A program made the position numbers and the translations under genes. A stretch of 64,000 bases of DNA from a virus (lineage: Duplodnaviria > Heunggongvirae > Uroviricota > Caudoviricetes): positions 189,489 to 253,488 of the IMG/VR virus record IMGVR_UViG_3300028914_000001. One strand, given 5' to 3'. The notes beneath the pieces are model-generated. The model saw only the letters and a list, made by a program, of their open reading frames with translations. It had not been told where the DNA came from and made no database searches. Positions 2,768 through 29,449 of this stretch are shown here, piece by piece (the first letter of the stretch is position 1; each line of letters opens with the position of its first letter).

Positions 2768-3922
2768 TTAAAAAATAACCTTTCGCTGATACCTATCATT
2801 CGAACACAAGGCAACCTGCTTTCCTGCCGCAGTTTCCGCAAAAATAACGGAACTGTCGTGAATGCTGCCCAGAAGGATGTTCATGATACGGCACTTAACG
2901 GCAAACGGAGAAAATTCCTTAGCTTCGCCAACTGAAACCATTTTGAAGATTTCACCGTACTTTTCCTTCCAAGTGATGCCGACATTGCGAGGACCGATGT
3001 ATTCAAACGTCAGCACGTCATTCTTGTTGGTGGCGGCGAGGTTCTCACAAAGCTTCGGAATAGCTTCATCAAATGTCGTACCTGGGGTAATGAACTTGGT
3101 TTCGCCATCCTTGAAGACCAAGGTTTCATACTTGCTCGGACCGACATTGGCAACCACAGTGATTGTACCGTCACTAGCCATGATTGATTGAGACTTTTCG
3201 TCGTAGTCGATAGTCACTGTTCCCACACCAATAAAGGACAGCAGCTTCATAGTAGACTTGCTCACGTTAAAGGCAAAGTTCGGGGTATTCTTAGAGTTTC
3301 CAGCATTACTCATATTGTAACGAGTAACCACAGACATATCGTCGTTACCGACACGGAACGAAACCACCCCAGACTTTCTGCAGATGTCTACGTCGGCAAA
3401 GAAATCGCTGAGACTGAACAGTTCAACCATGTCACCCTGTTCCATATCAAATGTGGCACTAGATTCGCCGAACACGGCTTCGTCGAACGGTTCCACATTA
3501 ACCATTTCAGCTTCGTACGAGAATATCGGCTCGGCTTCTTCCACCGAAGCAACTTCTGTGCCCGCCGCTTCATCTTCGCCCTTTTTCACAGTAAGGTCGG
3601 AGACATCAGGTGCCTTCAAGAATCCAGCAACATGGATGGTATCGCCCTGTCGCATGAGTGCAATCTGTTCGCTGTTGATACAGGTGTTGAGCGCCTTACC
3701 AAGGAAACGGGCATTAAAGTAAAACTCGTTGCAGTCATCGAAGTCAGACACATCGTAGTCTCCAATCCATATCGGAGTCTTGATTTTAAGACCGCATTTC
3801 AGAGTGAAATACACCTCTTTTTTGCCGACAACCACCTTAACTGGTTCATCAGCACTTTCCACACCACCAATAAGCGATGCCGCATAACGAAGAGCCGGAG
3901 AATTTGTATCAAAAAGTATCAT
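2768..3922 (-). CDS. acidic 384-aa protein, possibly DnaN (beta clamp)-like
   Basis: DnaN-like size; FNARFLGKAL and FNVSKSTMKLL segments in repeated beta/alpha units; adjacent to the gp45-like gene. Confidence 0.4.
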   Translation of the reverse strand: MILFDTNSPALRYAASLIGGVESADEPVKVVVGKKEVYFTLKCGLKIKTPIWIGDYDVSDFDDCNEFYFNARFLGKALNTCINSEQIALMRQGDTIHVAGFLKAPDVSDLTVKKGEDEAAGTEVASVEEAEPIFSYEAEMVNVEPFDEAVFGESSATFDMEQGDMVELFSLSDFFADVDICRKSGVVSFRVGNDDMSVVTRYNMSNAGNSKNTPNFAFNVSKSTMKLLSFIGVGTVTIDYDEKSQSIMASDGTITVVANVGPSKYETLVFKDGETKFITPGTTFDEAIPKLCENLAATNKNDVLTFEYIGPRNVGITWKEKYGEIFKMVSVGEAKEFSPFAVKCRIMNILLGSIHDSSVIFAETAAGKQVALCSNDRYQRKVIF

Positions 3923-19836: not shown

Positions 19837-20826
19837 ATGGATATCCAATACTTCAAAAACCCTAACATGAACGTGCTCAACTGCACACACTATGACCTTG
19901 ATGGAGTGGGGTCCCATCTTATCATCAAGACAATCTTTCCTAACGCAAAGTACGCCAAGATGTACTACGGCAAGGATAATGACCTCTTGACATTCAACAC
20001 TATTCCTAACAAGGAACAGTACAACGCCATCATCTTTACCGATTATACGCCAGTAAAATTCATGGACAGTGTTCGTGCAACTGGCATTCCTACCATGGTT
20101 CTTGACCACCATGCTAGCGCATCTGATTTCAACGACCCGGCTAATGCAATCATTATCGACAAGTCTGCTTGCGGCGCCCGTCTTGCCTATGATTTCTACC
20201 GTGATGTCAAGGATATTTCCCACCTCGAAGAACTCATCAATTATATCGACACGTTTGACCGTTGGATTAGAACCGATAAGGCACGATTCGAACATGCATA
20301 CAAGATGAACATGCTGTTCAAGGACAAGTACAAGCTCAATTTCGATGCTTGGATTGAAGCCTACAAGGATGGCCATACCGAATTCACGGAAGATGAAATT
20401 GCTTTCCTCAACCAGATTGACAGTGAAGTTGAACAGACATACAATAATCTGCAGTTTACAGACCTTCCTGGTGGCGGTGTATTGACCCGTTGCGACAAGC
20501 ATTCGACAGAAGTCGGTATTCGTATTCAGGACAGCGAAAAGTATAACTACTGGATTAACATCTATAATAACAAGCGTGAAAACAAAATCGGTTTGATGTT
20601 CCGTGGATATAACCCGAACATTTCCTTTGACAAGTTTGCTAGAAAGATTGAAATTCATGTTCCTGGCTCGAACATGGGTGGACACGGACTGTCATGTGGA
20701 GGCAAGGCCGATAATGAGACTGATGCAATGCGAATGGTCGCCATGTCAATCCCGTACATTCAGCAGCAGATTGACGGCACCTTTGTACAGGACGAAGAAA
20801 TGCTGAGTAAGCCTGACGAAATATAA
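19837..20826 (+). CDS. DHH/DHHA1 family phosphoesterase
   Basis: HYDLDG, FTDY, LDHH, C-terminal GGH. Confidence 0.88.
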   Translation: MDIQYFKNPNMNVLNCTHYDLDGVGSHLIIKTIFPNAKYAKMYYGKDNDLLTFNTIPNKEQYNAIIFTDYTPVKFMDSVRATGIPTMVLDHHASASDFNDPANAIIIDKSACGARLAYDFYRDVKDISHLEELINYIDTFDRWIRTDKARFEHAYKMNMLFKDKYKLNFDAWIEAYKDGHTEFTEDEIAFLNQIDSEVEQTYNNLQFTDLPGGGVLTRCDKHSTEVGIRIQDSEKYNYWINIYNNKRENKIGLMFRGYNPNISFDKFARKIEIHVPGSNMGGHGLSCGGKADNETDAMRMVAMSIPYIQQQIDGTFVQDEEMLSKPDEI

Positions 20827-20856
20827 ACTCTTGGTGCAAAAACCCAAGCAGTCAAC

Positions 20857-21984
20857 ATGAAAATTCTACAAATCAGGACGGTGCTTGCAACCGTCCTTCT
20901 TTCTTTATGTATCGGCCAGGTTTATGCCTGGTCTCTTCTATCCAACGCTGTCAACTCGGTTCTAAACCACGACATGTCGTTCGCCTTCTCTCTTGCCATC
21001 CTGTTCCTCGGCCTGTCTGCAGCTTTCATGGGAAAGTTCGTGGAAAGAAACCCGAAGGCGACCTACATCATGTCCGTGATTTTCTTCGTTGCCGGATTCC
21101 TCCTAAGTGGATTCGCTTGCAGCGTAGGAAGCGTCGGGATGTTCTATGCATCGTATGGCGTACTCTTCGGATGCGCATGCGGTCTCGGGTATGTAGCCCC
21201 AATCAAGACGCTGATGCTCTACTTCCGTCATAACAAGGCTGTCGCATCTGCCATTGCCATCCTATCGTTCGGGTTGGCAAAGTCTGTTGCAAGTCCGCTG
21301 TACACATACCTTACCTCAACCTATGCTATCGACCAAGTGTTCTATCTCCTTGCTCTAATCTATACTGTTCCGCTTATCGTGACATCGTTCCTGTTCAGGA
21401 AGTTCCCGGTCAATTACAAACCACCTATGGTCGAGACAATCGATATCGGAAAGACGGTTAGAACATTGCCTTACATTTCAATCTGGTTGTTCTTCTTCCT
21501 CAACATCGCTTGCGGCCTAGCCTTCATCAGTCAGGAAGCTCAACTATATTCCCACTATGGCGTGGCAATCGGGATGGCAACCTTGCTGTGTACATTGAGT
21601 GCTGTTTTCAATGCTGGCGGGCGTTTTGGGTTTGCTTGGATTAGCGACAAGTTCGGTCGATACGTTCCGTACATCATCCTGTTCGCATTGAGTTCCCTGC
21701 TGTGCTTGATTAACTTTGGATTTGCTGGACTGGGCCTGTTCGTTGTCAGCGTCATGCTCATCAACGCTTGTTATGGCGGAGGTTTCTCCGCTTTGCCTGC
21801 ACTGCTCGCAAGCAAGTACGGGATAACGAATACATCAACCATCCATTCTCTGACATTGAGCGCTTGGGGTATTGCAGGAATTGCTTCACTCTTCTTGAAG
21901 CAGCTCCCGGTTGATACCTTGTTCATCACATGCTTCATACTGTATGGCTTCAACCTTCTGTTGCTGTACCTGAGCAAACGATAA
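20857..21984 (+). CDS. MFS transporter, oxalate:formate antiporter (OFA)-like
   Basis: LCIGQVYAWS, GLGYVAPI, NAGGRFGFAWISDKFGR, CYGGGFS; many TM helices. Confidence 0.85.
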   Translation: MKILQIRTVLATVLLSLCIGQVYAWSLLSNAVNSVLNHDMSFAFSLAILFLGLSAAFMGKFVERNPKATYIMSVIFFVAGFLLSGFACSVGSVGMFYASYGVLFGCACGLGYVAPIKTLMLYFRHNKAVASAIAILSFGLAKSVASPLYTYLTSTYAIDQVFYLLALIYTVPLIVTSFLFRKFPVNYKPPMVETIDIGKTVRTLPYISIWLFFFLNIACGLAFISQEAQLYSHYGVAIGMATLLCTLSAVFNAGGRFGFAWISDKFGRYVPYIILFALSSLLCLINFGFAGLGLFVVSVMLINACYGGGFSALPALLASKYGITNTSTIHSLTLSAWGIAGIASLFLKQLPVDTLFITCFILYGFNLLLLYLSKR

Positions 21985-21997
21985 ACTATATGTAATT

Positions 21998-22639
21998 ATG
22001 AATGACTTACTGAAAACCTATAAGACGTTTGTCGATTCGGTCTATGCCAACTTTGGCAAGGCTGCTGCAAAACCCATTATCAGAGAAGGGTTCAAAGCGT
22101 TATGTGAAGCTATTGACGATAACATGGTCAAGCTGGTCGAGTACCTAAATCAACCAGCTGCTACGCCAATACATAACTCTGATGGCGTTCTGATGACAGG
22201 GCGTAAGGCTTTCAACTACTTCGAGAACGCCTCTATAAAAGAAGGAATGTGGGGTGTTCATTTTACCTACCTAGAACCATTCTATTATATATTGGAAGAG
22301 GGGTTTTCTAACGGAACGACTAATTTGGACCAACTTGCCTATACAGGAAACTACGAAGGTGGGCGAGGAAAGGATGGATGGTTCTTTGCACTTCCATTAG
22401 ATAGCAAATACTTGAAGTCGTATGACATGGGTTACGGTGACTACGGGTTCCTTATAAAGACTGATTGCGTATTGGTTGACCACTTGGGCGATGGTGATAC
22501 TGAGATGTTGTTCCGTGGCAGTGATGTAATTGAAATGATACCTTTCTATTACGACGAAGACTCCGAGATGTGGATATCAAAGTCCGACGGGGCTGAATAC
22601 GCTACTCTTGAAGAGTTAATCGCTAAGTACGCCAAATAA
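21998..22639 (+). CDS. leader-tagged protein, putative ADP-ribosyltransferase-like fold
   Basis: VHFT...ILEEGF...GWFFA...YG...E pattern; F-x25-E leader; GATAAACTA upstream. Confidence 0.45.
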   Translation: MNDLLKTYKTFVDSVYANFGKAAAKPIIREGFKALCEAIDDNMVKLVEYLNQPAATPIHNSDGVLMTGRKAFNYFENASIKEGMWGVHFTYLEPFYYILEEGFSNGTTNLDQLAYTGNYEGGRGKDGWFFALPLDSKYLKSYDMGYGDYGFLIKTDCVLVDHLGDGDTEMLFRGSDVIEMIPFYYDEDSEMWISKSDGAEYATLEELIAKYAK

Positions 22640-22659
22640 GTGGATTGTTACCTGTTTTC

Positions 22660-22689
22660 AGCCGACCTGCAATAGTGGTCGGCTTTTTT
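22660..22689 (+). terminator. intrinsic terminator
   Basis: AGCCGACC...GGTCGGCT followed by T tract. Confidence 0.75.
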
Positions 22690-22740
22690 GTTGCTGGAAT
22701 AATATATTTTAAGCTAGAATAAAGATTGGAGGAAACCGAT

Positions 22741-23193
22741 ATGGTATCGGCTGGCCTTTTGATAACAGACGGCGAGAAGTTCCTTGTGGAGCTGCCGTTG
22801 CACCAGACTCCTGGTGAACACCATTTTGATTTGCCCAAGGGTCACGTCGAGGATTTCGACAGTGACTTTAGGGGCACTGCGTTTAGAGAAGCTAAGGAAG
22901 AGACTGGTTACGATTTTGACTCTTATAAGGACCGTGCATACGCATTGTGTAATGAACCTGTCAGCTACATCAAGGGCAAGCAGATTGTCCTGTACCGTCT
23001 CGACCTGACGAAAGAAGAGATGCCTAGTATCGGCGAGTACAAGTGCCAGAGTTTCTTCCCGGACAAGAGGACGGGCAAGAATGTTCCTGAGGTTATTGGC
23101 TATGCCTACAAGCCGCTTTCCGAAATCAGGAAGTGGCTCTTCAAGGGTTATAGCCGCACGTTTGACAGGCTCGGTATTTTCAAGGAAGGATAA
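22741..23193 (+). CDS. NUDIX hydrolase (no leader)
   Basis: DLPKGHVE...AFREAKEETG; ATG follows GGAGG. Confidence 0.9.
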   Translation: MVSAGLLITDGEKFLVELPLHQTPGEHHFDLPKGHVEDFDSDFRGTAFREAKEETGYDFDSYKDRAYALCNEPVSYIKGKQIVLYRLDLTKEEMPSIGEYKCQSFFPDKRTGKNVPEVIGYAYKPLSEIRKWLFKGYSRTFDRLGIFKEG

Positions 23194-23693
23194 TGTCACT
23201 GTTTGAAGTCATCGTCTATTCGCTCGGGATATTCCCCATGCTCCTTGTACTCGGAATGATTGCGAGGGAGTGGTGGGTGTTCCGTAAGAATAGGGTTAAG
23301 GGAAGCTCTAAGACCAAGGGCGAGCCGCCTACACCAGTTCTCCCGAAGGCAGAGTTAGCAAAGTCTGATTTCGATGACATAGCGAAGAAAAAGCGGGAGG
23401 TCGAACTCGCCGCAGAGATACGCCGCATCCTTGCCAAGTCGGTTACACGTCAGGGCGAAGGTGAATACGACTTCGACGCAAACAAGCTTACCGCAGTTGA
23501 ATACCAGCTTCTTTTGAACTATGCCAAATCCCGCAAGGAGGAACTTAATTCCTATGTGGAGATGTGCAACAAGATAAGTGAAGAACCCGAAGCTGATTGC
23601 AGCGAGGAAATGAAATTGATTTACGGAAACATCGGCCTTATCGAATTGGCTAAATTCGTCGAGGCTTTCTCTGACAAAGCAAATCGTTGGTAA
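23193..23693 (+). CDS. hypothetical membrane-anchored protein
   Basis: N-terminal hydrophobic helix; translationally coupled (TAATG). Confidence 0.7.
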   Translation: MSLFEVIVYSLGIFPMLLVLGMIAREWWVFRKNRVKGSSKTKGEPPTPVLPKAELAKSDFDDIAKKKREVELAAEIRRILAKSVTRQGEGEYDFDANKLTAVEYQLLLNYAKSRKEELNSYVEMCNKISEEPEADCSEEMKLIYGNIGLIELAKFVEAFSDKANRW

Positions 23694-23704
23694 TGGAGGC
23701 AAAA

Positions 23705-25063
23705 ATGAACAACGATAAATACCTAAACATAATGGAATTCCTGGCAAAGGCGCTTTATGATGTCGGTGCCACGGTAAAGCATATCTACAAGGAAGAGCAT
23801 CCTGCGATTCCGCCTATCCCGACGACGCCGCAGCCAGTGCCGCCTAGTCCGCCTAGGTACACTGTCGAACAGGAAATCCCTTTCCCGCCAGCGCCGAATT
23901 GCCCGCCACCCGTGGTGGTCAGACAGCCAGAACGCTATGGTGGTCTTGGTTTCAAACCGCTTATGAAGCCGAAGGAACCCTGGTTTGATAAGCAACGTCC
24001 GATACCTGGCCCGAACCAGTTCTGCAACATGCAGGACTACACCTTCCAGCAGTTGAACGGTAATGTCCCGGCGGAAGCTACCATCTTGGCTGACCCGTTC
24101 ATGAAACCGAACCAGAAAGTGAATCTTGAATCGAATCCCGATTATTTTGGCTTTGACCATAACAAGAACACCCCAATACGGATGAAAACCATGGTTGACA
24201 CCGCTGATGGACACCCAGAGCCGATTGGCAATCTGATTAAGGAACACCCGGCGGCTCTTGACGCAGCTAAAACCAATGTGCAGAAGATGAATCCATCCCT
24301 CGGTATTTGTCAGAACCTGAGCAACGGTAAGATAGAACGGGAAATCGAGTCCCTTACCAAAGCGTTGAACGATATGACTCTTATGGGCAAACCGGGTTCT
24401 ATGAGCGAGGTGTCCAATAAGCTCGTCGGCCTAACTTTTGCTCGTACCTATCTCAACTTCCTGCCGAATGAAACTGGAAAGAAATTCATTGTTAACGAAC
24501 TCAAAGATAATCCAGTTGCACTCAAGGCTTTCAACGATGCCGTCGACGAGAATGAAGGAATGAGAGCTAAGGCTATTGCTGAGCGTCAATATGAAAGTCA
24601 ACGTGTCATGTCGCAACGTGGTATCAGTATCGGAAAGGATTTAAAAGCCTCGATGGACAATTTCTATAGCCCTAAGCCAGATGAACTTATGGCTAAGCAG
24701 GTAGACTTTCCGACAACTCCGCAAGACTTAATCAAAGCTGCCATGACAAAAAAATACCTGAAAAGCATCGACGCAAAGAAAACCGTAGGTAAAATGACCG
24801 ATATGCTGGATACATGCAACAACTTGGCTAAATCTCCCGCAATACCTGGAAACGAGGCAATGAAGGAAGCCGAAATGTCGCTGACCGAGGAAAACTTGAA
24901 GAAGGATGCATCGGAGATAAAGGCAGATGACCGTCCAGTAATACCTGAAAAAGAGGAAACTCCCGATGCTCCGGCTGAACAGCCGAAAGAAAACGTCAAG
25001 GAAAAGAAATTGAAAGCGAAAGCTAAGGAACAGAAAACATTAGCCAATTCTAACAAGGAGTAA
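23705..25063 (+). CDS. hypothetical Pro-rich protein
   Basis: Long ORF with GGAGG before MNNDKY. Confidence 0.75.
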   Translation: MNNDKYLNIMEFLAKALYDVGATVKHIYKEEHPAIPPIPTTPQPVPPSPPRYTVEQEIPFPPAPNCPPPVVVRQPERYGGLGFKPLMKPKEPWFDKQRPIPGPNQFCNMQDYTFQQLNGNVPAEATILADPFMKPNQKVNLESNPDYFGFDHNKNTPIRMKTMVDTADGHPEPIGNLIKEHPAALDAAKTNVQKMNPSLGICQNLSNGKIEREIESLTKALNDMTLMGKPGSMSEVSNKLVGLTFARTYLNFLPNETGKKFIVNELKDNPVALKAFNDAVDENEGMRAKAIAERQYESQRVMSQRGISIGKDLKASMDNFYSPKPDELMAKQVDFPTTPQDLIKAAMTKKYLKSIDAKKTVGKMTDMLDTCNNLAKSPAIPGNEAMKEAEMSLTEENLKKDASEIKADDRPVIPEKEETPDAPAEQPKENVKEKKLKAKAKEQKTLANSNKE

Positions 25064-25066
25064 AAA

Positions 25067-25336
25067 ATGGCAACGAAGAAAACGAAGACCTATAACTTTG
25101 GAAAAGCACTTGAAGCCTTGAAGGGCGGTAAAACTATCCGTCGTCAGGGTTGGAACGGAGTCGGTATCTTTATCGCTCTCCAAGTTCCCGATAAGAAGTC
25201 CAAGATGAGCCAGCCGTACCTCTACATCGACACCCTCGGTTTGCAGACGACAAACCCGAAGGCTCCGAAGGGTCGTGTACCGTGGGCACCGAGCCAGACT
25301 GACCTGCTTGCCGAAGACTGGGAAATCATCAAGTAG
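25067..25336 (+). CDS. DUF2829 / Tad2-like anti-defence nucleotide-signal sponge
   Basis: FGKALEALKGGK.IRRQGWNG...PYLYI...PWAPSQTDLLAEDW is the DUF2829 signature. Confidence 0.85.
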   Translation: MATKKTKTYNFGKALEALKGGKTIRRQGWNGVGIFIALQVPDKKSKMSQPYLYIDTLGLQTTNPKAPKGRVPWAPSQTDLLAEDWEIIK

Positions 25337-25356
25337 GAATTTTCCCCACACAAATA

Positions 25357-25384
25357 AAGCCTCCGTGTTACACGGGGGCTTTTC
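25357..25384. terminator. bidirectional terminator
   Basis: AAAGCCTCCGTG-tta-CACGGGGGCTTTT between convergent genes. Confidence 0.75.
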
Positions 25385-25406
25385 TGATGTTTCACGTGGA
25401 ACAATT

Positions 25407-25991
25407 TTAGAACTTGATACCTTCCCTCTTGAAGGTCTTGTCAAACTCTGGCCATAGCCACTTGCCTATTTCCTTCAATGGAAGATATTCGTAGGAGCAT
25501 GCTTCTGGCATTGCGGCGTTCTTCTTAGGGTCATGGAAGTATGACTTGCAGGAATAAGATGTCAACGGTGGAAGCTCTTTCAGATTTATCCTGTAAAGCA
25601 TCAGGTTGTTTCCTTTACGGAATGGCACCTGCTTGCGGAAAATTCCCTTGGCATCGTTGTAATACTTATGCCAGTTGTACCCGGTTTCTTCCAACGCTTC
25701 CCTGAATGCGGCATCTTTTACACTTTCGCCATCGTTCTCGACGTGGCCTTTCGGTAGGTCATACTGGTGTGGCTTTCCCTTCTTGTTTCCTGTCGGAAGT
25801 TCTGCAAGGAATACTTCACCATCGGTGATGAGAAGTCCAGACGAGCATGACGGATGTTCCTCATTGTTTCTCGGGTCTGCAAATTCAAGCAGGGTCTTGG
25901 CTAAATCCTTGACAGCTTCAAACTGTGCCTTTGATGCAAGTATATGCTTGGCTGACTCGTTGAATGTATCTATGACATATTGTGGGGTCAT
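25407..25991 (-). CDS. NUDIX hydrolase with N-terminal F-x25-E leader
   Basis: DLPKGHVE...AFREALEETG; paralog of 22741 with about 47 extra N-terminal residues. Confidence 0.9.
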   Translation of the reverse strand: MTPQYVIDTFNESAKHILASKAQFEAVKDLAKTLLEFADPRNNEEHPSCSSGLLITDGEVFLAELPTGNKKGKPHQYDLPKGHVENDGESVKDAAFREALEETGYNWHKYYNDAKGIFRKQVPFRKGNNLMLYRINLKELPPLTSYSCKSYFHDPKKNAAMPEACSYEYLPLKEIGKWLWPEFDKTFKREGIKF

Positions 25992-26017
25992 TTTAGGTCA
26001 CATGTTAAATCTAATGA

Positions 26018-26026
26018 TAGTTTATA
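26018..26026 (-). promoter_or_regulatory. putative late promoter TATAAACTA
   Basis: Recurrent motif upstream of 25991. Confidence 0.7.
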
Positions 26027-26040
26027 TTCCAAAAAAGACT

Positions 26041-26072
26041 AAAAAAGGAGCCTGCCTTGCGGCAAGCTCCCT
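26041..26072 (-). terminator. terminator after major capsid gene
   Basis: GGAGCTTGCC-gcaa-GGCAGGCTCC followed by T6. Confidence 0.8.
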
Positions 26073-26100
26073 TTCAGTTCCGTTTAAGGAATTCGAGTGA

Positions 26101-27594
26101 TTACCACTCTTCTTCCTTAGCAGCCGTACCGAACGGACGGTCGAGCGTGTGGCCAGCCTTGTCTGCAACACCAACGGTGTCGAGAGTTACGCCCACAGTC
26201 GGACCTTCGTTAGATTCCCACGGGATGTCACCAGTGAAGGAAACACCGAGGAGGTCGTTGTTCACGAAGCGAACAACACGGTAGAACAAGCCGCAACCGA
26301 GCAAGTTGCTGACAATGGCGTAACGGCTCTTCACGATGAGACGTGGGCTTCCGTCTTCCTGTCCTGCAGTCTTGCAGAAGATATACGGGATGTACGGCAT
26401 GAAGATGATACCAGATTCGCCCTGACGTGGTCCCTTGTAACCAACGAGAGCGTAGTCCTGCCAAGAATAGATATCCTGGTAGAGCTTAATCTGACCGTTC
26501 AGGAGAGAACCAGCGTCGGAAACGCCACCACCCGGCTGAACAGCGGCATCTGTACCGAGGTAAGTCGGGATATAGATACCAGAGTTGAGAGTAGAGATTG
26601 CAGCAACGATGCTCGGAGAGCAGATTGCAAAGTTACCAGAGCCCATGCGGGTCGTAAGAGAAATCTTACGGGCAACTGCGATAATCGTGTTCACGATACC
26701 GCCAGCAATCTTTTCAGCGACCCAACGGCCATCCTGGAAGTTTGCGTGACCAGAGAGGTCAACGGTGATAGCGGCTTCACCACCAAACATCGGGTTCTGA
26801 GCGACAGACACCATAGCAGCGAGGATTTCACGGTCGATTTCCTGCTGAATCTCAAATTGGAGACCTTCGAGCAAGAGTGCTTCAACGTCTTGGCCATGGG
26901 CTGCCGCCATATCCTGTTGAAGTTCCAAGGTGTAATGGCTCTTGATAGCCTTCGTACCAACACGGATAGCACCACTTACGACCTTGATAGAGGCCTTCTT
27001 GATGTTGTAGTGGCCAGTGTTTTCATCGTAGTAGTCACCAGTACCCGGCTGGTCGCCAAAGTGGTTGGTGAGGTAAGCGTTACCAGTCTTGTTGGCAGAG
27101 TTCATTGCAGCGCCATCATAAGACGGACCACCGAACGTGCCTTCACCGTAGTTGGAGAGCATTTCGCCAGCCATCGTTGTCCACGGGTTGAAGGTGCCCT
27201 TCACACCAGTGTGGTCAGACACGAGGTCATAACCAATTTCCTTCTTGAGACCCTTACGGAAACCAACAGTCTTCGGAGCTTCGTCGTCATAGAGGAAACG
27301 AAGTGCGAAGTAAATTCCGTTAGGAGTTGTGGTCGGGATGGTAGCTACGGTCTGCATAGCCAAGAGGTCAGGGAACTGACGACGTACCAGCGGCAAAGCG
27401 TACTGCTGGTATTGGGCTACGTCAGCACTGACGTTAGCAGATTCTGGGAGGAAACCCTTGTTGAGCTTGCACTGGGTTTCAAGAAGTGTGGAAACCACAG
27501 CAGCTTCAGCACGGGACTTGAGCTTACGACCAAGGTTGGATTCCAAAATTGGAGCCCACTTGCTCGTAGCTGACTTAGGTCTGAACTGTTGCAT
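26101..27594 (-). CDS. gp23: major capsid protein, T4 gp23-like
   Basis: KWAPILE, LVRRQFPDL, IYFALRFLY, YTLELQQDM..HG.D, EIDREI, PYIP, SRYAI; start MQQFRP follows AGGA (27612 is an alternative). Confidence 0.95.
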   Translation of the reverse strand: MQQFRPKSATSKWAPILESNLGRKLKSRAEAAVVSTLLETQCKLNKGFLPESANVSADVAQYQQYALPLVRRQFPDLLAMQTVATIPTTTPNGIYFALRFLYDDEAPKTVGFRKGLKKEIGYDLVSDHTGVKGTFNPWTTMAGEMLSNYGEGTFGGPSYDGAAMNSANKTGNAYLTNHFGDQPGTGDYYDENTGHYNIKKASIKVVSGAIRVGTKAIKSHYTLELQQDMAAAHGQDVEALLLEGLQFEIQQEIDREILAAMVSVAQNPMFGGEAAITVDLSGHANFQDGRWVAEKIAGGIVNTIIAVARKISLTTRMGSGNFAICSPSIVAAISTLNSGIYIPTYLGTDAAVQPGGGVSDAGSLLNGQIKLYQDIYSWQDYALVGYKGPRQGESGIIFMPYIPYIFCKTAGQEDGSPRLIVKSRYAIVSNLLGCGLFYRVVRFVNNDLLGVSFTGDIPWESNEGPTVGVTLDTVGVADKAGHTLDRPFGTAAKEEEW

Positions 27595-27693
27595 AATGTT
27601 ATCCTGTGCCATCTGGCACTGTTTGAGTTCTACTTTAAGTTTATTGAGGTATTTCGACAAAAAATTTTTTACCTCAAAATCTGCATTGAAATG

Positions 27694-27721
27694 AAAAAAA
27701 CCCTCCGAATGGAGGGTTTTT
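27694..27721. terminator. terminator after portal gene
   Basis: AAAAAAACCCTCC-gaat-GGAGGGTTTTT. Confidence 0.75.
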
Positions 27722-27745: not shown

Positions 27746-29449
27746 CTAGAAGGCTCCTGTCTCGGGTGGCGGGGCCATTCCGCCGAAGTCGCCCAAGGAC
27801 TCGCCTTCGCCGCTATCGGCATCGGTTTCTTCACCGAGGAGAACCTTCTGTTCATGCTCACGCCACTTGCGGTTCTGAGTGAGGTCGGCATCTGAAATAC
27901 CGAGACCGTAACGGAGACAGTATTCTTGGGAAAGCGGGTTGTTCGGGGCATCGTCCTTCACAGCAAATTCCATCATGCTCTGGAATACTGCGAGACGGGT
28001 AGTCCATACGTCGGCATCGATGTAGCTCTGGAAACCATTGCTTCGCTTGAACTTGATGTCGAAGTTCTCTTCCAACTTGATATTCTCGGTAAATTCTTTC
28101 CTTGTATTGAGCACCATGATGAAGAGTCTTACGAGAGCTTGTTCGAACGGTGTCTGGTAACGGTCAACGAGTCTAGCGAATGCTACTTCCGCCTGAGTAA
28201 CTTCACCAACCTTACCGTTGGAGTAGTTTACACTGTCGCCAGCCAATGCTGTGATACGTCCAGGAGGCACCATCAAGGCGTTGACGAGGTTTCTCTTGAA
28301 GAATTTGAGGTCGTCGATGTTGCCTAGCTGGTCACCGCCAGGTAGTCTTTCAATGGTTGAACCTGACGAACCGCCCTGAACAGGGATGATGAAGTGTTCC
28401 GATAGGCCGATTGCCTTACCCCAGTTGGTAATTTCACCCGTAGTGGCGTTATAGTCAATCTGACGGCTGAACATCTTGGCCTGTTCCTTCATTGTCGCTT
28501 CGGCCTGCGGTTTAGGCTGGCCAGCCACGTCAACTTTTAGAATCATCTTTTCGGAGCCCCAGAGAACACGGTACATAACAACGCTATCTTCAATCGTATT
28601 CAGTTGGTTGTGTGCCTTCACTGCTGGTTCGAGGATTGAACGGGGGTCGTTCACGCCGCCTGGGCCGTAAAGGTCGAGGGAGAGGAACAAAATCTGGTTC
28701 GGAGAGTAGTCGATGTAATTCTTGCTGGTATGTGCGTATGTTCCAGTAAGCATTTGACGATAGCCGATAATCAAGTTATCCTGGACGACCACAATCATAT
28801 TTTCGCCCGGTAACATGTTCAGTCCGACGATTTCATTGGTTTCCTCGTCATATACGACTTCGAGGAAGAGTCGGCCTTCGATGAGCATCTTTCTCATGTA
28901 CTGCCAAGCAGTCTTCTGGAACTTGAAAATCTTCCTGAGCACATCCCTTTTGAAGATTGTCTGCAAGCTCATCTTTGTCACTTCGGCAATTTCAGAATAT
29001 TCGTTGACCTGCAAGCTGCAAATGTCGCCCTTGTCGTCCTTATAGATTGCCTCATTGCAAATCTGGGTCAGAGACTCGTTCACCTCCGAGCGTGTGGCGA
29101 TGATGTTGTACTTCAACATGCGTTCCACGTTGTTTCGCCAGTAGAGTTGCACCTGATTTTCGGCGATGGTATCTTGAACCTTGGTGGGGTCAATCTGCCC
29201 GTCGTTAATCATGATGGTCGGCATGTAGGTGGAGAATCCGTCAGGTGACATACCGTTCGGGTACATCATCTGCTGGACGCCCTGTCCTACCGCATTCCTG
29301 GACCTTGATATTTCATGGTTCAGGTCTTCTCCGTTGAACATTCGGTCAAAAAGTTCGCCTCTCGGGTTATTTTCGCCGTAGTCTCTCACATGCGTCATGA
29401 CCATGGACGCAATGTTTTCGGGTCTTTTCTTTTTCGATGAAAAAAGCAT
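27746..29449 (-). CDS. gp20: portal protein, T4 gp20-like
   Basis: ICNEAI, NQLNTIEDSVVMYR, LPGGDQLGNIDDLKFF...ALMVPPGRI. Confidence 0.93.
   Translation of the reverse strand: MLFSSKKKRPENIASMVMTHVRDYGENNPRGELFDRMFNGEDLNHEISRSRNAVGQGVQQMMYPNGMSPDGFSTYMPTIMINDGQIDPTKVQDTIAENQVQLYWRNNVERMLKYNIIATRSEVNESLTQICNEAIYKDDKGDICSLQVNEYSEIAEVTKMSLQTIFKRDVLRKIFKFQKTAWQYMRKMLIEGRLFLEVVYDEETNEIVGLNMLPGENMIVVVQDNLIIGYRQMLTGTYAHTSKNYIDYSPNQILFLSLDLYGPGGVNDPRSILEPAVKAHNQLNTIEDSVVMYRVLWGSEKMILKVDVAGQPKPQAEATMKEQAKMFSRQIDYNATTGEITNWGKAIGLSEHFIIPVQGGSSGSTIERLPGGDQLGNIDDLKFFKRNLVNALMVPPGRITALAGDSVNYSNGKVGEVTQAEVAFARLVDRYQTPFEQALVRLFIMVLNTRKEFTENIKLEENFDIKFKRSNGFQSYIDADVWTTRLAVFQSMMEFAVKDDAPNNPLSQEYCLRYGLGISDADLTQNRKWREHEQKVLLGEETDADSGEGESLGDFGGMAPPPETGAF

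Follow-up and report, generated by a model that had tools for sequence, protein, structure and literature searches.

Why would a phage keep two related Nudix hydrolase genes close to its head genes, one of them opening with a peptide that the other does without? The question is raised by a window of 64,000 nucleotides, the whole stretch of DNA analyzed here, which comprises positions 189,489 to 253,488 of IMG/VR record IMGVR_UViG_3300028914_000001 (G000:189489-253488), a virus record that is complete at 422,150 bp and has direct terminal repeats. We call the copy without the peptide NUDIX-S, the copy with it NUDIX-L, and the peptide the leader. Positions refer to the window unless they carry the prefix G000, and those of the features discussed are collected in Table 1. 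A first-pass annotation had taken the two genes for paralogs and the leader for a bolt-on module that would send one version of the enzyme into the virion.

Two Nudix paralogs and the leader family

The two proteins are 45% identical across 146 residues (BLASTP, E 3e-43), and both exceed the Pfam NUDIX (PF00293) cut-off of 21.1 bits, NUDIX-L with 39 bits and NUDIX-S with 32.5 bits, so their description as paralogs holds. All five motifs that the first-pass annotation had listed as shared (GLLITDGE.FL.ELP, DLPKGHVE, FREA.EETGY, Y.C.S.F.D and PL.EI.KWL) are visible in the alignment. The Nudix box of NUDIX-L reads G82-x6-E89-x7-R97-E98-A-L-E101-E102-T-G-Y, with one residue more before E89 than the canonical G-x5-E of the consensus GX5EX7REUXEEXGU. 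That of NUDIX-S reads G34...S41-x7-R49-E50-A-K-E53-E54-T-G-Y, in which Ser41 replaces the first box Glu and the REx2EE core is intact. NUDIX-S starts at the ATG at 22741, preceded by GGAGGA at 22728-22733. Residue 2 of NUDIX-S pairs with residue 49 of NUDIX-L, which gives an extension of 47 residues, found as annotated in NUDIX-L only and containing F10-x25-E36. A further motif had been placed inside this extension; the sequence in question, TATAAACTA, lies instead in the DNA upstream of the start codon.

In the AlphaFold2 model of NUDIX-L (mean predicted local distance difference test score, pLDDT, 89.7), residues 3-17 and 21-37 form predicted helices at pLDDT 65-78, followed by the linker and, from residue 48, a complete alpha/beta/alpha Nudix fold at pLDDT >90. 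Foldseek aligns this model with Dcp2, YmfB, RppH and Ap4A hydrolase, at a probability of 1.00. Nearly all of 248 representative homologs begin at the Nudix body, without the leader. Because of the model, of leaderless NUDIX-S and of these homologs that start at the body, the extension is probably dispensable for the Nudix fold.

The leader itself was traced with a profile that was seeded with five N termini from the window and iterated over the open reading frames (ORFs) of the genome. At least 23 ORFs genome-wide open with the same peptide of ~35 residues, NUDIX-L among them. A leave-one-out profile built from the other 22 leaders retrieves NUDIX-L at E 7e-5 from 3615 stop-to-stop ORFs of the genome, the next non-member standing at E 0.4. 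The F-x25-E spacing occurs in 17 of the 23 leader proteins and also in 74 of 737 ORFs of at least 100 aa (10%), so we use it as a description and not as a test. The conserved core comprises 27 residues within ~36, and TATAAAC stands 14-56 nt upstream of most of the 23 leader genes. By eye, the leader nearest to that of NUDIX-L belongs to a 519-aa protein at G000:375304-376863. These data support the view of the leader as a bolt-on module: it is common to ~23 unrelated proteins and absent from NUDIX-S and nearly all 248 homologs, it forms in the model a separate hairpin before a complete Nudix fold, and its rate of evolution is about tenfold that of the body.

The bodies behind the leader are mutually unrelated and include Amidase_2, PG_binding_1, a WG-repeat protein and many proteins without a family; there is also a weak endolysin-like match. 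Amidase, peptidoglycan-binding and similar activities are typical of ejected proteins. The several members with amidase or peptidoglycan-binding domains would equally suit a leader that acts as an export or lysis-compartment signal, sending late, mostly peptidoglycan-acting proteins to the envelope, in which case NUDIX-L would act outside the cytoplasm or merely be carried along. We consider such a signal improbable: the leader is amphipathic, acidic to neutral and without a hydrophobic core, many of the cargo proteins are highly acidic and lack an envelope domain, and there is no known periplasmic substrate for a Nudix hydrolase.

Seventeen of the 23 leaders close with two hydrophobic residues and a Glu. 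The residue after that Glu is A, S, G, D or Q in 16 of the 17 leaders with the F-x25-E core, and Phe in NUDIX-L only. The leader of NUDIX-L ends LLE36|F37, and the junction TLLEF-x-DPRN is invariant in nine NUDIX-L orthologs, down to 78% identity.

Two further candidates were rejected. The gene at 21998-22639, considered as a leader member, has no match at all to the leader profile. The C-terminal extension of protein P0008, which ends in FVDPRMK and resembles the linker of NUDIX-L, is read-through into a small downstream ORF that is separate in the related locus L036.

Upstream signals, gene order and selection

The two genes have different upstream signals. The TATAAACTA motif ahead of NUDIX-L is present in 53 copies in the genome where ~5 are expected, a 10-fold excess, and 51 of the 53 have an ORF of at least 50 aa within the next 12-80 nt. 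The genes behind it include the portal unit, a tail sheath stabilizer and a baseplate-wedge-containing protein, and the motif resembles the T4 late promoter, TATAAATA. Relatives keep TATAAACTA or a one-base variant of it ahead of NUDIX-L. For NUDIX-S, no TATAAAC is found within 100 nt upstream. Its promoter-like element is of another kind, conserved in relatives and with a near copy before the window gene 2768-3922 (minus strand). The A/T-rich core of this element, AATAATnTATTTTA, occurs at seven sites in the genome (22697-22714 and 3971 on the minus strand of the window, and others) and precedes several start codons by ~30-45 nt. This core differs from the TATAAACTA class and could be the mark of a second type of promoter. 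Between the convergent transcription units lies a hairpin (25356-25382) whose inner 5-pair stem (25363-25375) was called on the minus strand.

Twenty related IMG/VR loci were recovered for comparison. The order portal, major capsid protein (MCP), NUDIX-L is constant in 14 of the 14 loci with the L form, and the 10 of these that extend far enough also hold NUDIX-S, with the MFS gene beyond. In L033, a 77% relative, NUDIX-S and NUDIX-L lie on the same strand and the NUDIX-S gene is intact. In L034, from the next lineage out (MCP 82%), the neighbors of the MCP gene are just an S-type gene and an ORF of 148 aa, and NUDIX-L is missing at that place. A maximum-likelihood tree unites the L and S clades as monophyletic against other NudE-like proteins (98/99); the L sequences form one clade (100/100), with a long stem of 1.08 changes per site and very short internal branches. 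A duplication inside this phage lineage would be the best explanation for the pair.

Among close relatives, the ratio of nonsynonymous to synonymous substitution rates (dN/dS) is 0.018 for the body of NUDIX-L and 0.06 for that of NUDIX-S, rising to 0.11 in the linker and 0.16 in the leader. Selection acts on both copies, and the body of NUDIX-L is the more constrained. NUDIX-L is therefore not a decaying duplicate by this measure, and we think it very improbable that it is redundant, or that its extension is an annotation artefact or a neutral remnant. One copy does appear dispensable in one related contig, though the copy disrupted there is NUDIX-S. The invariance of the leader junction across the orthologs likewise argues against decay, as does the lack of any internal start in NUDIX-L that would give a complete Nudix domain; the overlap of RNA-library contigs with part of NUDIX-L adds a weak point on the same side.

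Proposed head loading of NUDIX-L

We consider it fairly probable that NUDIX-S is cytoplasmic and that NUDIX-L is loaded into the head and delivered with the DNA. By analogy with the capsid targeting sequence (CTS) proteins and NudE.1 of phage T4, we infer packaging, cleavage, ejection, the timing of NUDIX-S and the substrates. Both copies would be functional Nudix pyrophosphohydrolases of the NudE.1 type. NUDIX-S would be a cytoplasmic enzyme with a non-late promoter of its own, heading an accessory unit that evolves fast and ends here with a Tad2-like gene, and NUDIX-L, immediately behind the portal and MCP genes, would have TATAAACTA as its late promoter. In the manner of the T4 CTS, the leader would bring NUDIX-L into the core of the prohead, and a gp21-type (S77) prohead protease would then cut the leader off after the hydrophobic-hydrophobic-Glu sequence (LLE36|F37). 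The basic, mature NUDIX-L would exit the head together with the DNA and be active in the next host ahead of any phage gene expression, and NUDIX-S would take over after this early action.

An S77 (gp21-family) prohead protease is encoded at G000:154229-154729 (PF03420, 49.4 bits against a cut-off of 27; phrog_207, E 2e-30); its gene stands between a leader gene immediately upstream and one for a coiled-coil protein downstream. That the leader gene adjoins the protease gene, that most leaders end at a Glu site of the protease type, and that NUDIX-L closes the portal-MCP unit in all relatives carrying it speak against a division of labor by timing alone, which we regard as possible, if rather unlikely. 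Both enzymes would then be cytoplasmic, NUDIX-S acting before and NUDIX-L during the late phase, with NUDIX-L not delivered, and the leader would have some other late role, for example as a zymogen-like propeptide or in assembly-site docking or oligomerization. In its favor, the differing upstream signals were observed directly, as opposed to the packaging and cleavage that we deduce for NUDIX-L; cell-wall enzymes in the cargo would also gain from inactivity until lysis, and the Phe after the putative cut in NUDIX-L is atypical. On the other side, where T4-like phages put one N-terminal tag on unrelated late proteins, the nearest precedent is head loading.

The 245-aa leader-bearing protein upstream of the protease gene (G000:C1:155068-155805; locus L041, 3069-3806, minus strand) carries a CxC...CxH pattern (CTCPDF...CKHLL) recalling a SWIM-type zinc finger.

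Several points weigh against the favored reading of the pair. The leader of NUDIX-L is the most divergent member of the family, and cleavage at E36 is uncertain because NUDIX-L has Phe after the putative cut where other leaders have A, S, G, D or Q. A complex prediction for leader residues 1-48 of NUDIX-L (9-row alignment) with the 316-aa protein adjoining the protease, a scaffold by position only and without a match in PHROGs, scored 0.02 against a mark of 0.32 and is neutral on binding. The charges of the bodies differ, with an isoelectric point (pI) of 8.7-9.0 and a net +3 to +5 for NUDIX-L against 5.6-5.9 and -3 to -4 for NUDIX-S; a basic shift would suit a protein packed with DNA and is suggestive, but we give it little weight because the leader cargo set has mixed charge. 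On the side of NUDIX-S, the early or middle class of the promoter is putative: a strict sigma-70 scan called none ahead of the gene, and the element has a weak -35. The linkage of NUDIX-S to the Tad2-like gene says little on function because Tad2 is strain-specific: it is present in a single genome copy, and tblastn finds none in the 20 related loci. The fold and profile matches (RppH, Dcp2, YmfB/NudJ, Ap4A hydrolases) do not single out a substrate. Finally, the phage has no close deposited relative by a megablast of 6 kb against phage records, which gave no match, and its MCP is only ~30% identical to those of known T4-like and deposited phages.

Should NUDIX-L be packaged but not NUDIX-S, the phage would supply its own control for leader function in two enzymes with a common fold and genome but a different tag, promoter and charge, and head loading of all 23 leader proteins could be tested through one small, soluble enzyme. 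The pair would also be the first concrete case of a head-packaged Nudix protein, so far only predicted. A more far-reaching proposal, which we hold to be doubtful, is that the head is preloaded with a basic, strongly constrained NudE-type hydrolase that would destroy messengers of immunity derived from nicotinamide adenine dinucleotide (NAD), or NAD caps, at DNA entry. Its targets would then be ADP-ribose (ADPR), gcADPR-type signals and NAD-RNA, making it a virion-delivered counter to defenses such as Thoeris; the leaderless paralog, expressed with Tad2, would maintain the effect later, in a two-stage anti-signaling scheme. Were that so, the tag would be a general route for shipping enzymes in T4-like megaphages.

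Neighborhood, substrates and known systems

NUDIX-S heads a four-gene unit, followed by a 166-aa membrane-anchored protein, a 456-aa protein and the Tad2-like gene, and the unit ends at the hairpin at 25356-25382. The membrane-anchored protein has no match in Pfam or PHROGs. The 456-aa protein exists in two allele types, 84% or ~41% identical, in relatives whose MCPs are 95% identical, and the interval between the Nudix paralogs looks like a hot spot of diversity.

Table 1. Features around the Nudix pair, in window coordinates
Feature	Position	Strand	Details
Intrinsic-terminator-like hairpin with T-run	22660-22689	+	Ends the DHH/MFS/21998 unit; upstream of NUDIX-S in loci L021-L031
NUDIX-S promoter-like element, TTGCTG-18 nt-TAGAAT	22691-22720	+	Contains AATAATATATTTTA; no late motif; A/T-rich
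NUDIX-S	22741-23193	+	150 aa, leaderless paralog, acidic, pI ~5.9
166-aa membrane-anchored protein	23193-23693	+	Second gene of the NUDIX-S unit; 43-64% identical in relatives
456-aa protein	23693-25063	+	NUDIX-S unit; fast-diverging
Tad2-like (DUF2829)	25067-25336	+	PF11195, 79.9 bits against a cut-off of 25, E 2e-22; last of the NUDIX-S unit
Hairpin terminator between the convergent NUDIX-S unit and NUDIX-L	25356-25382		12-pair stem on the plus strand
NUDIX-L	25407-25991	-	194 aa, with N-terminal extension
NUDIX-L catalytic body, residues 49-194	25407-25847	-	pLDDT >90, basic (pI 8.7)
NUDIX-L linker, residues 37-48 (FADPRNNEEHPS)	25848-25883	-	dN/dS 0.11
NUDIX-L leader, residues 1-36, predicted two-helix hairpin	25884-25991	-	Core F10-x25-E36; dN/dS 0.16
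TATAAACTA, late-promoter-like motif	26018-26026	-	35 nt before the NUDIX-L ATG, just past the MCP terminator
Terminator after the MCP gene	26042-26075	-	15-pair stem
MCP (gp23 family)	26101-27612	-	Pfam Gp23, E 7e-64; directly upstream of NUDIX-L
Portal protein	27746-29449	-	phrog_213, E 8e-69

Just upstream of the NUDIX-S unit, positions 19837-21984 encode a DHH-family phosphoesterase (329 aa) and then an MFS transporter (375 aa), the latter unusual for a phage; both are kept in close relatives and absent from the more distant L034. In another relative (L032:11440-15640), a 3.7-kb insertion interrupts NUDIX-S after roughly residue 58 and NUDIX-L is intact, which amounts to a natural knockout of NUDIX-S. 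The inserted genes encode an Eco57I/N6-type DNA methyltransferase (560 aa), a 133-aa ORF and an IS256-family (Transposase_mut) transposase.

The phage is uncultured, and its likeness to T4 is confined to core genes. Its DNA turns up repeatedly in gut metagenomes of cattle and sheep, across many studies. For window positions 22600-27700, cattle-gut DNA runs from three studies, one of them perhaps the source sample, contain at least 92% of the sampled words, and many further cattle and sheep gut runs contain this interval in part. In four cattle-gut RNA libraries, contigs overlap the MCP gene (all four runs, with the densest cover in each) and the Tad2-like gene (all four), and cover part of NUDIX-S in X21 and part of NUDIX-L in X20; these contigs are no readout of transcription, timing or level, carry-over of DNA is possible, and stretches without cover are uninformative.

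As to substrates, the 30 top matches listed by a tblastn search against phages are Nudix genes of T4-like phages (nudE/NudE.1-type, some annotated rppH), at 32-33% identity and E 5e-8 to 2e-6. There is also a match to phrog_1185 (E 3e-13), and the nearest characterized relative is T4 NudE.1, at 32% identity over the body. NCBIfam holds no equivalog for NUDIX-L or NUDIX-S, and the PDB sequence profile gives no specific assignment. T4 NudE.1 hydrolyzes ADPR, diadenosine triphosphate (Ap3A) and flavin adenine dinucleotide, and in vitro also NAD and NAD-RNA caps (10.1101/2024.04.04.588121). By analogy, the substrates here are most likely adenine-containing nucleoside diphosphates linked to a further moiety, of the NAD/ADP-ribose group (ADPR, NAD, NAD-capped RNA, Ap3A). 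The Tad2-like gene and a cluster of NAD salvage genes show the investment of this phage in NAD and ADP-ribose biology. The salvage cluster (G000:C1:322500-326000, locus L040) encodes an isochorismatase-family, nicotinamidase-like protein, YqeY, a NadM-like NMNAT-Nudix protein (351 aa) and a NAPRTase/Nampt-family protein (420 aa); a third Nudix domain in the genome is part of the NadM-like protein.

Some homologs carry the domain in other settings. In the distant homolog P0130, a NudE-like Nudix domain is fused to a KptA/Tpt1 RNA 2'-phosphotransferase; P0034 and P0055 are proteins of 1103 and 1802 aa in which it is accompanied by nucleotidyltransferase domains; and P0022 and P0066 bear a different conserved N-terminal extension of ~100 aa.

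Like T4 NudE.1, the two proteins belong to a phage Nudix clade of small, single-domain members with an RppH/Dcp2-like fold. T4 has one copy without a leader, whereas two copies are present here, one of them tagged; the G-x6-E box of NUDIX-L and the missing first box Glu of NUDIX-S, both read from sequence alone, are further differences. Viral Nudix paralogs in different temporal classes have a counterpart in vaccinia virus, whose D9 (early) and D10 (late) proteins are a Nudix decapping pair with m7G-cap substrates, but vaccinia is a eukaryotic virus and its pair is not known to share a packaging tag.

For the leader, the closest comparison is the CTS of the T4 proteins IPI, IPII, IPIII and Alt, which the protease gp21 removes after a Glu. 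Both are N-terminal tags that end at Glu on unrelated late proteins, in phages that encode a gp21-family protease and have host-directed enzymes among the cargo. The T4 tag is portable and loads diverse internal proteins, even foreign ones, into the scaffolding core (PMC3012670). It differs in being only ~10 residues long (MKTYQEFIAE), against ~36 residues with a 27-residue core, a predicted helical hairpin and ~23 carriers here, where loading and cleavage are presumed. The leader and the T4 CTS have no sequence similarity and a different consensus, and the resemblance is one of logic only.

That a NudE protein directed against NAD- or ADP-ribose-derived signals might be packaged in the head is already in the literature. 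Iyer, Burroughs, Anantharaman and Aravind (2022; PMC9503650) proposed that NudE proteins from late clusters of T4-like phages are packaged and injected to act against such signals, a prediction based on late-cluster position or on fusion to MuF, portal or head protease domains. New here is that one enzyme occurs both tagged and untagged, and that its two forms differ correspondingly in promoter, position, charge and constraint. The earlier cases and ours have in common a NudE-like Nudix protein among late or head genes and the same deduction drawn from it, but those lean on position or fusion, whereas the present locus offers a dedicated, cleavable-looking tag together with an untagged paralog as internal control.

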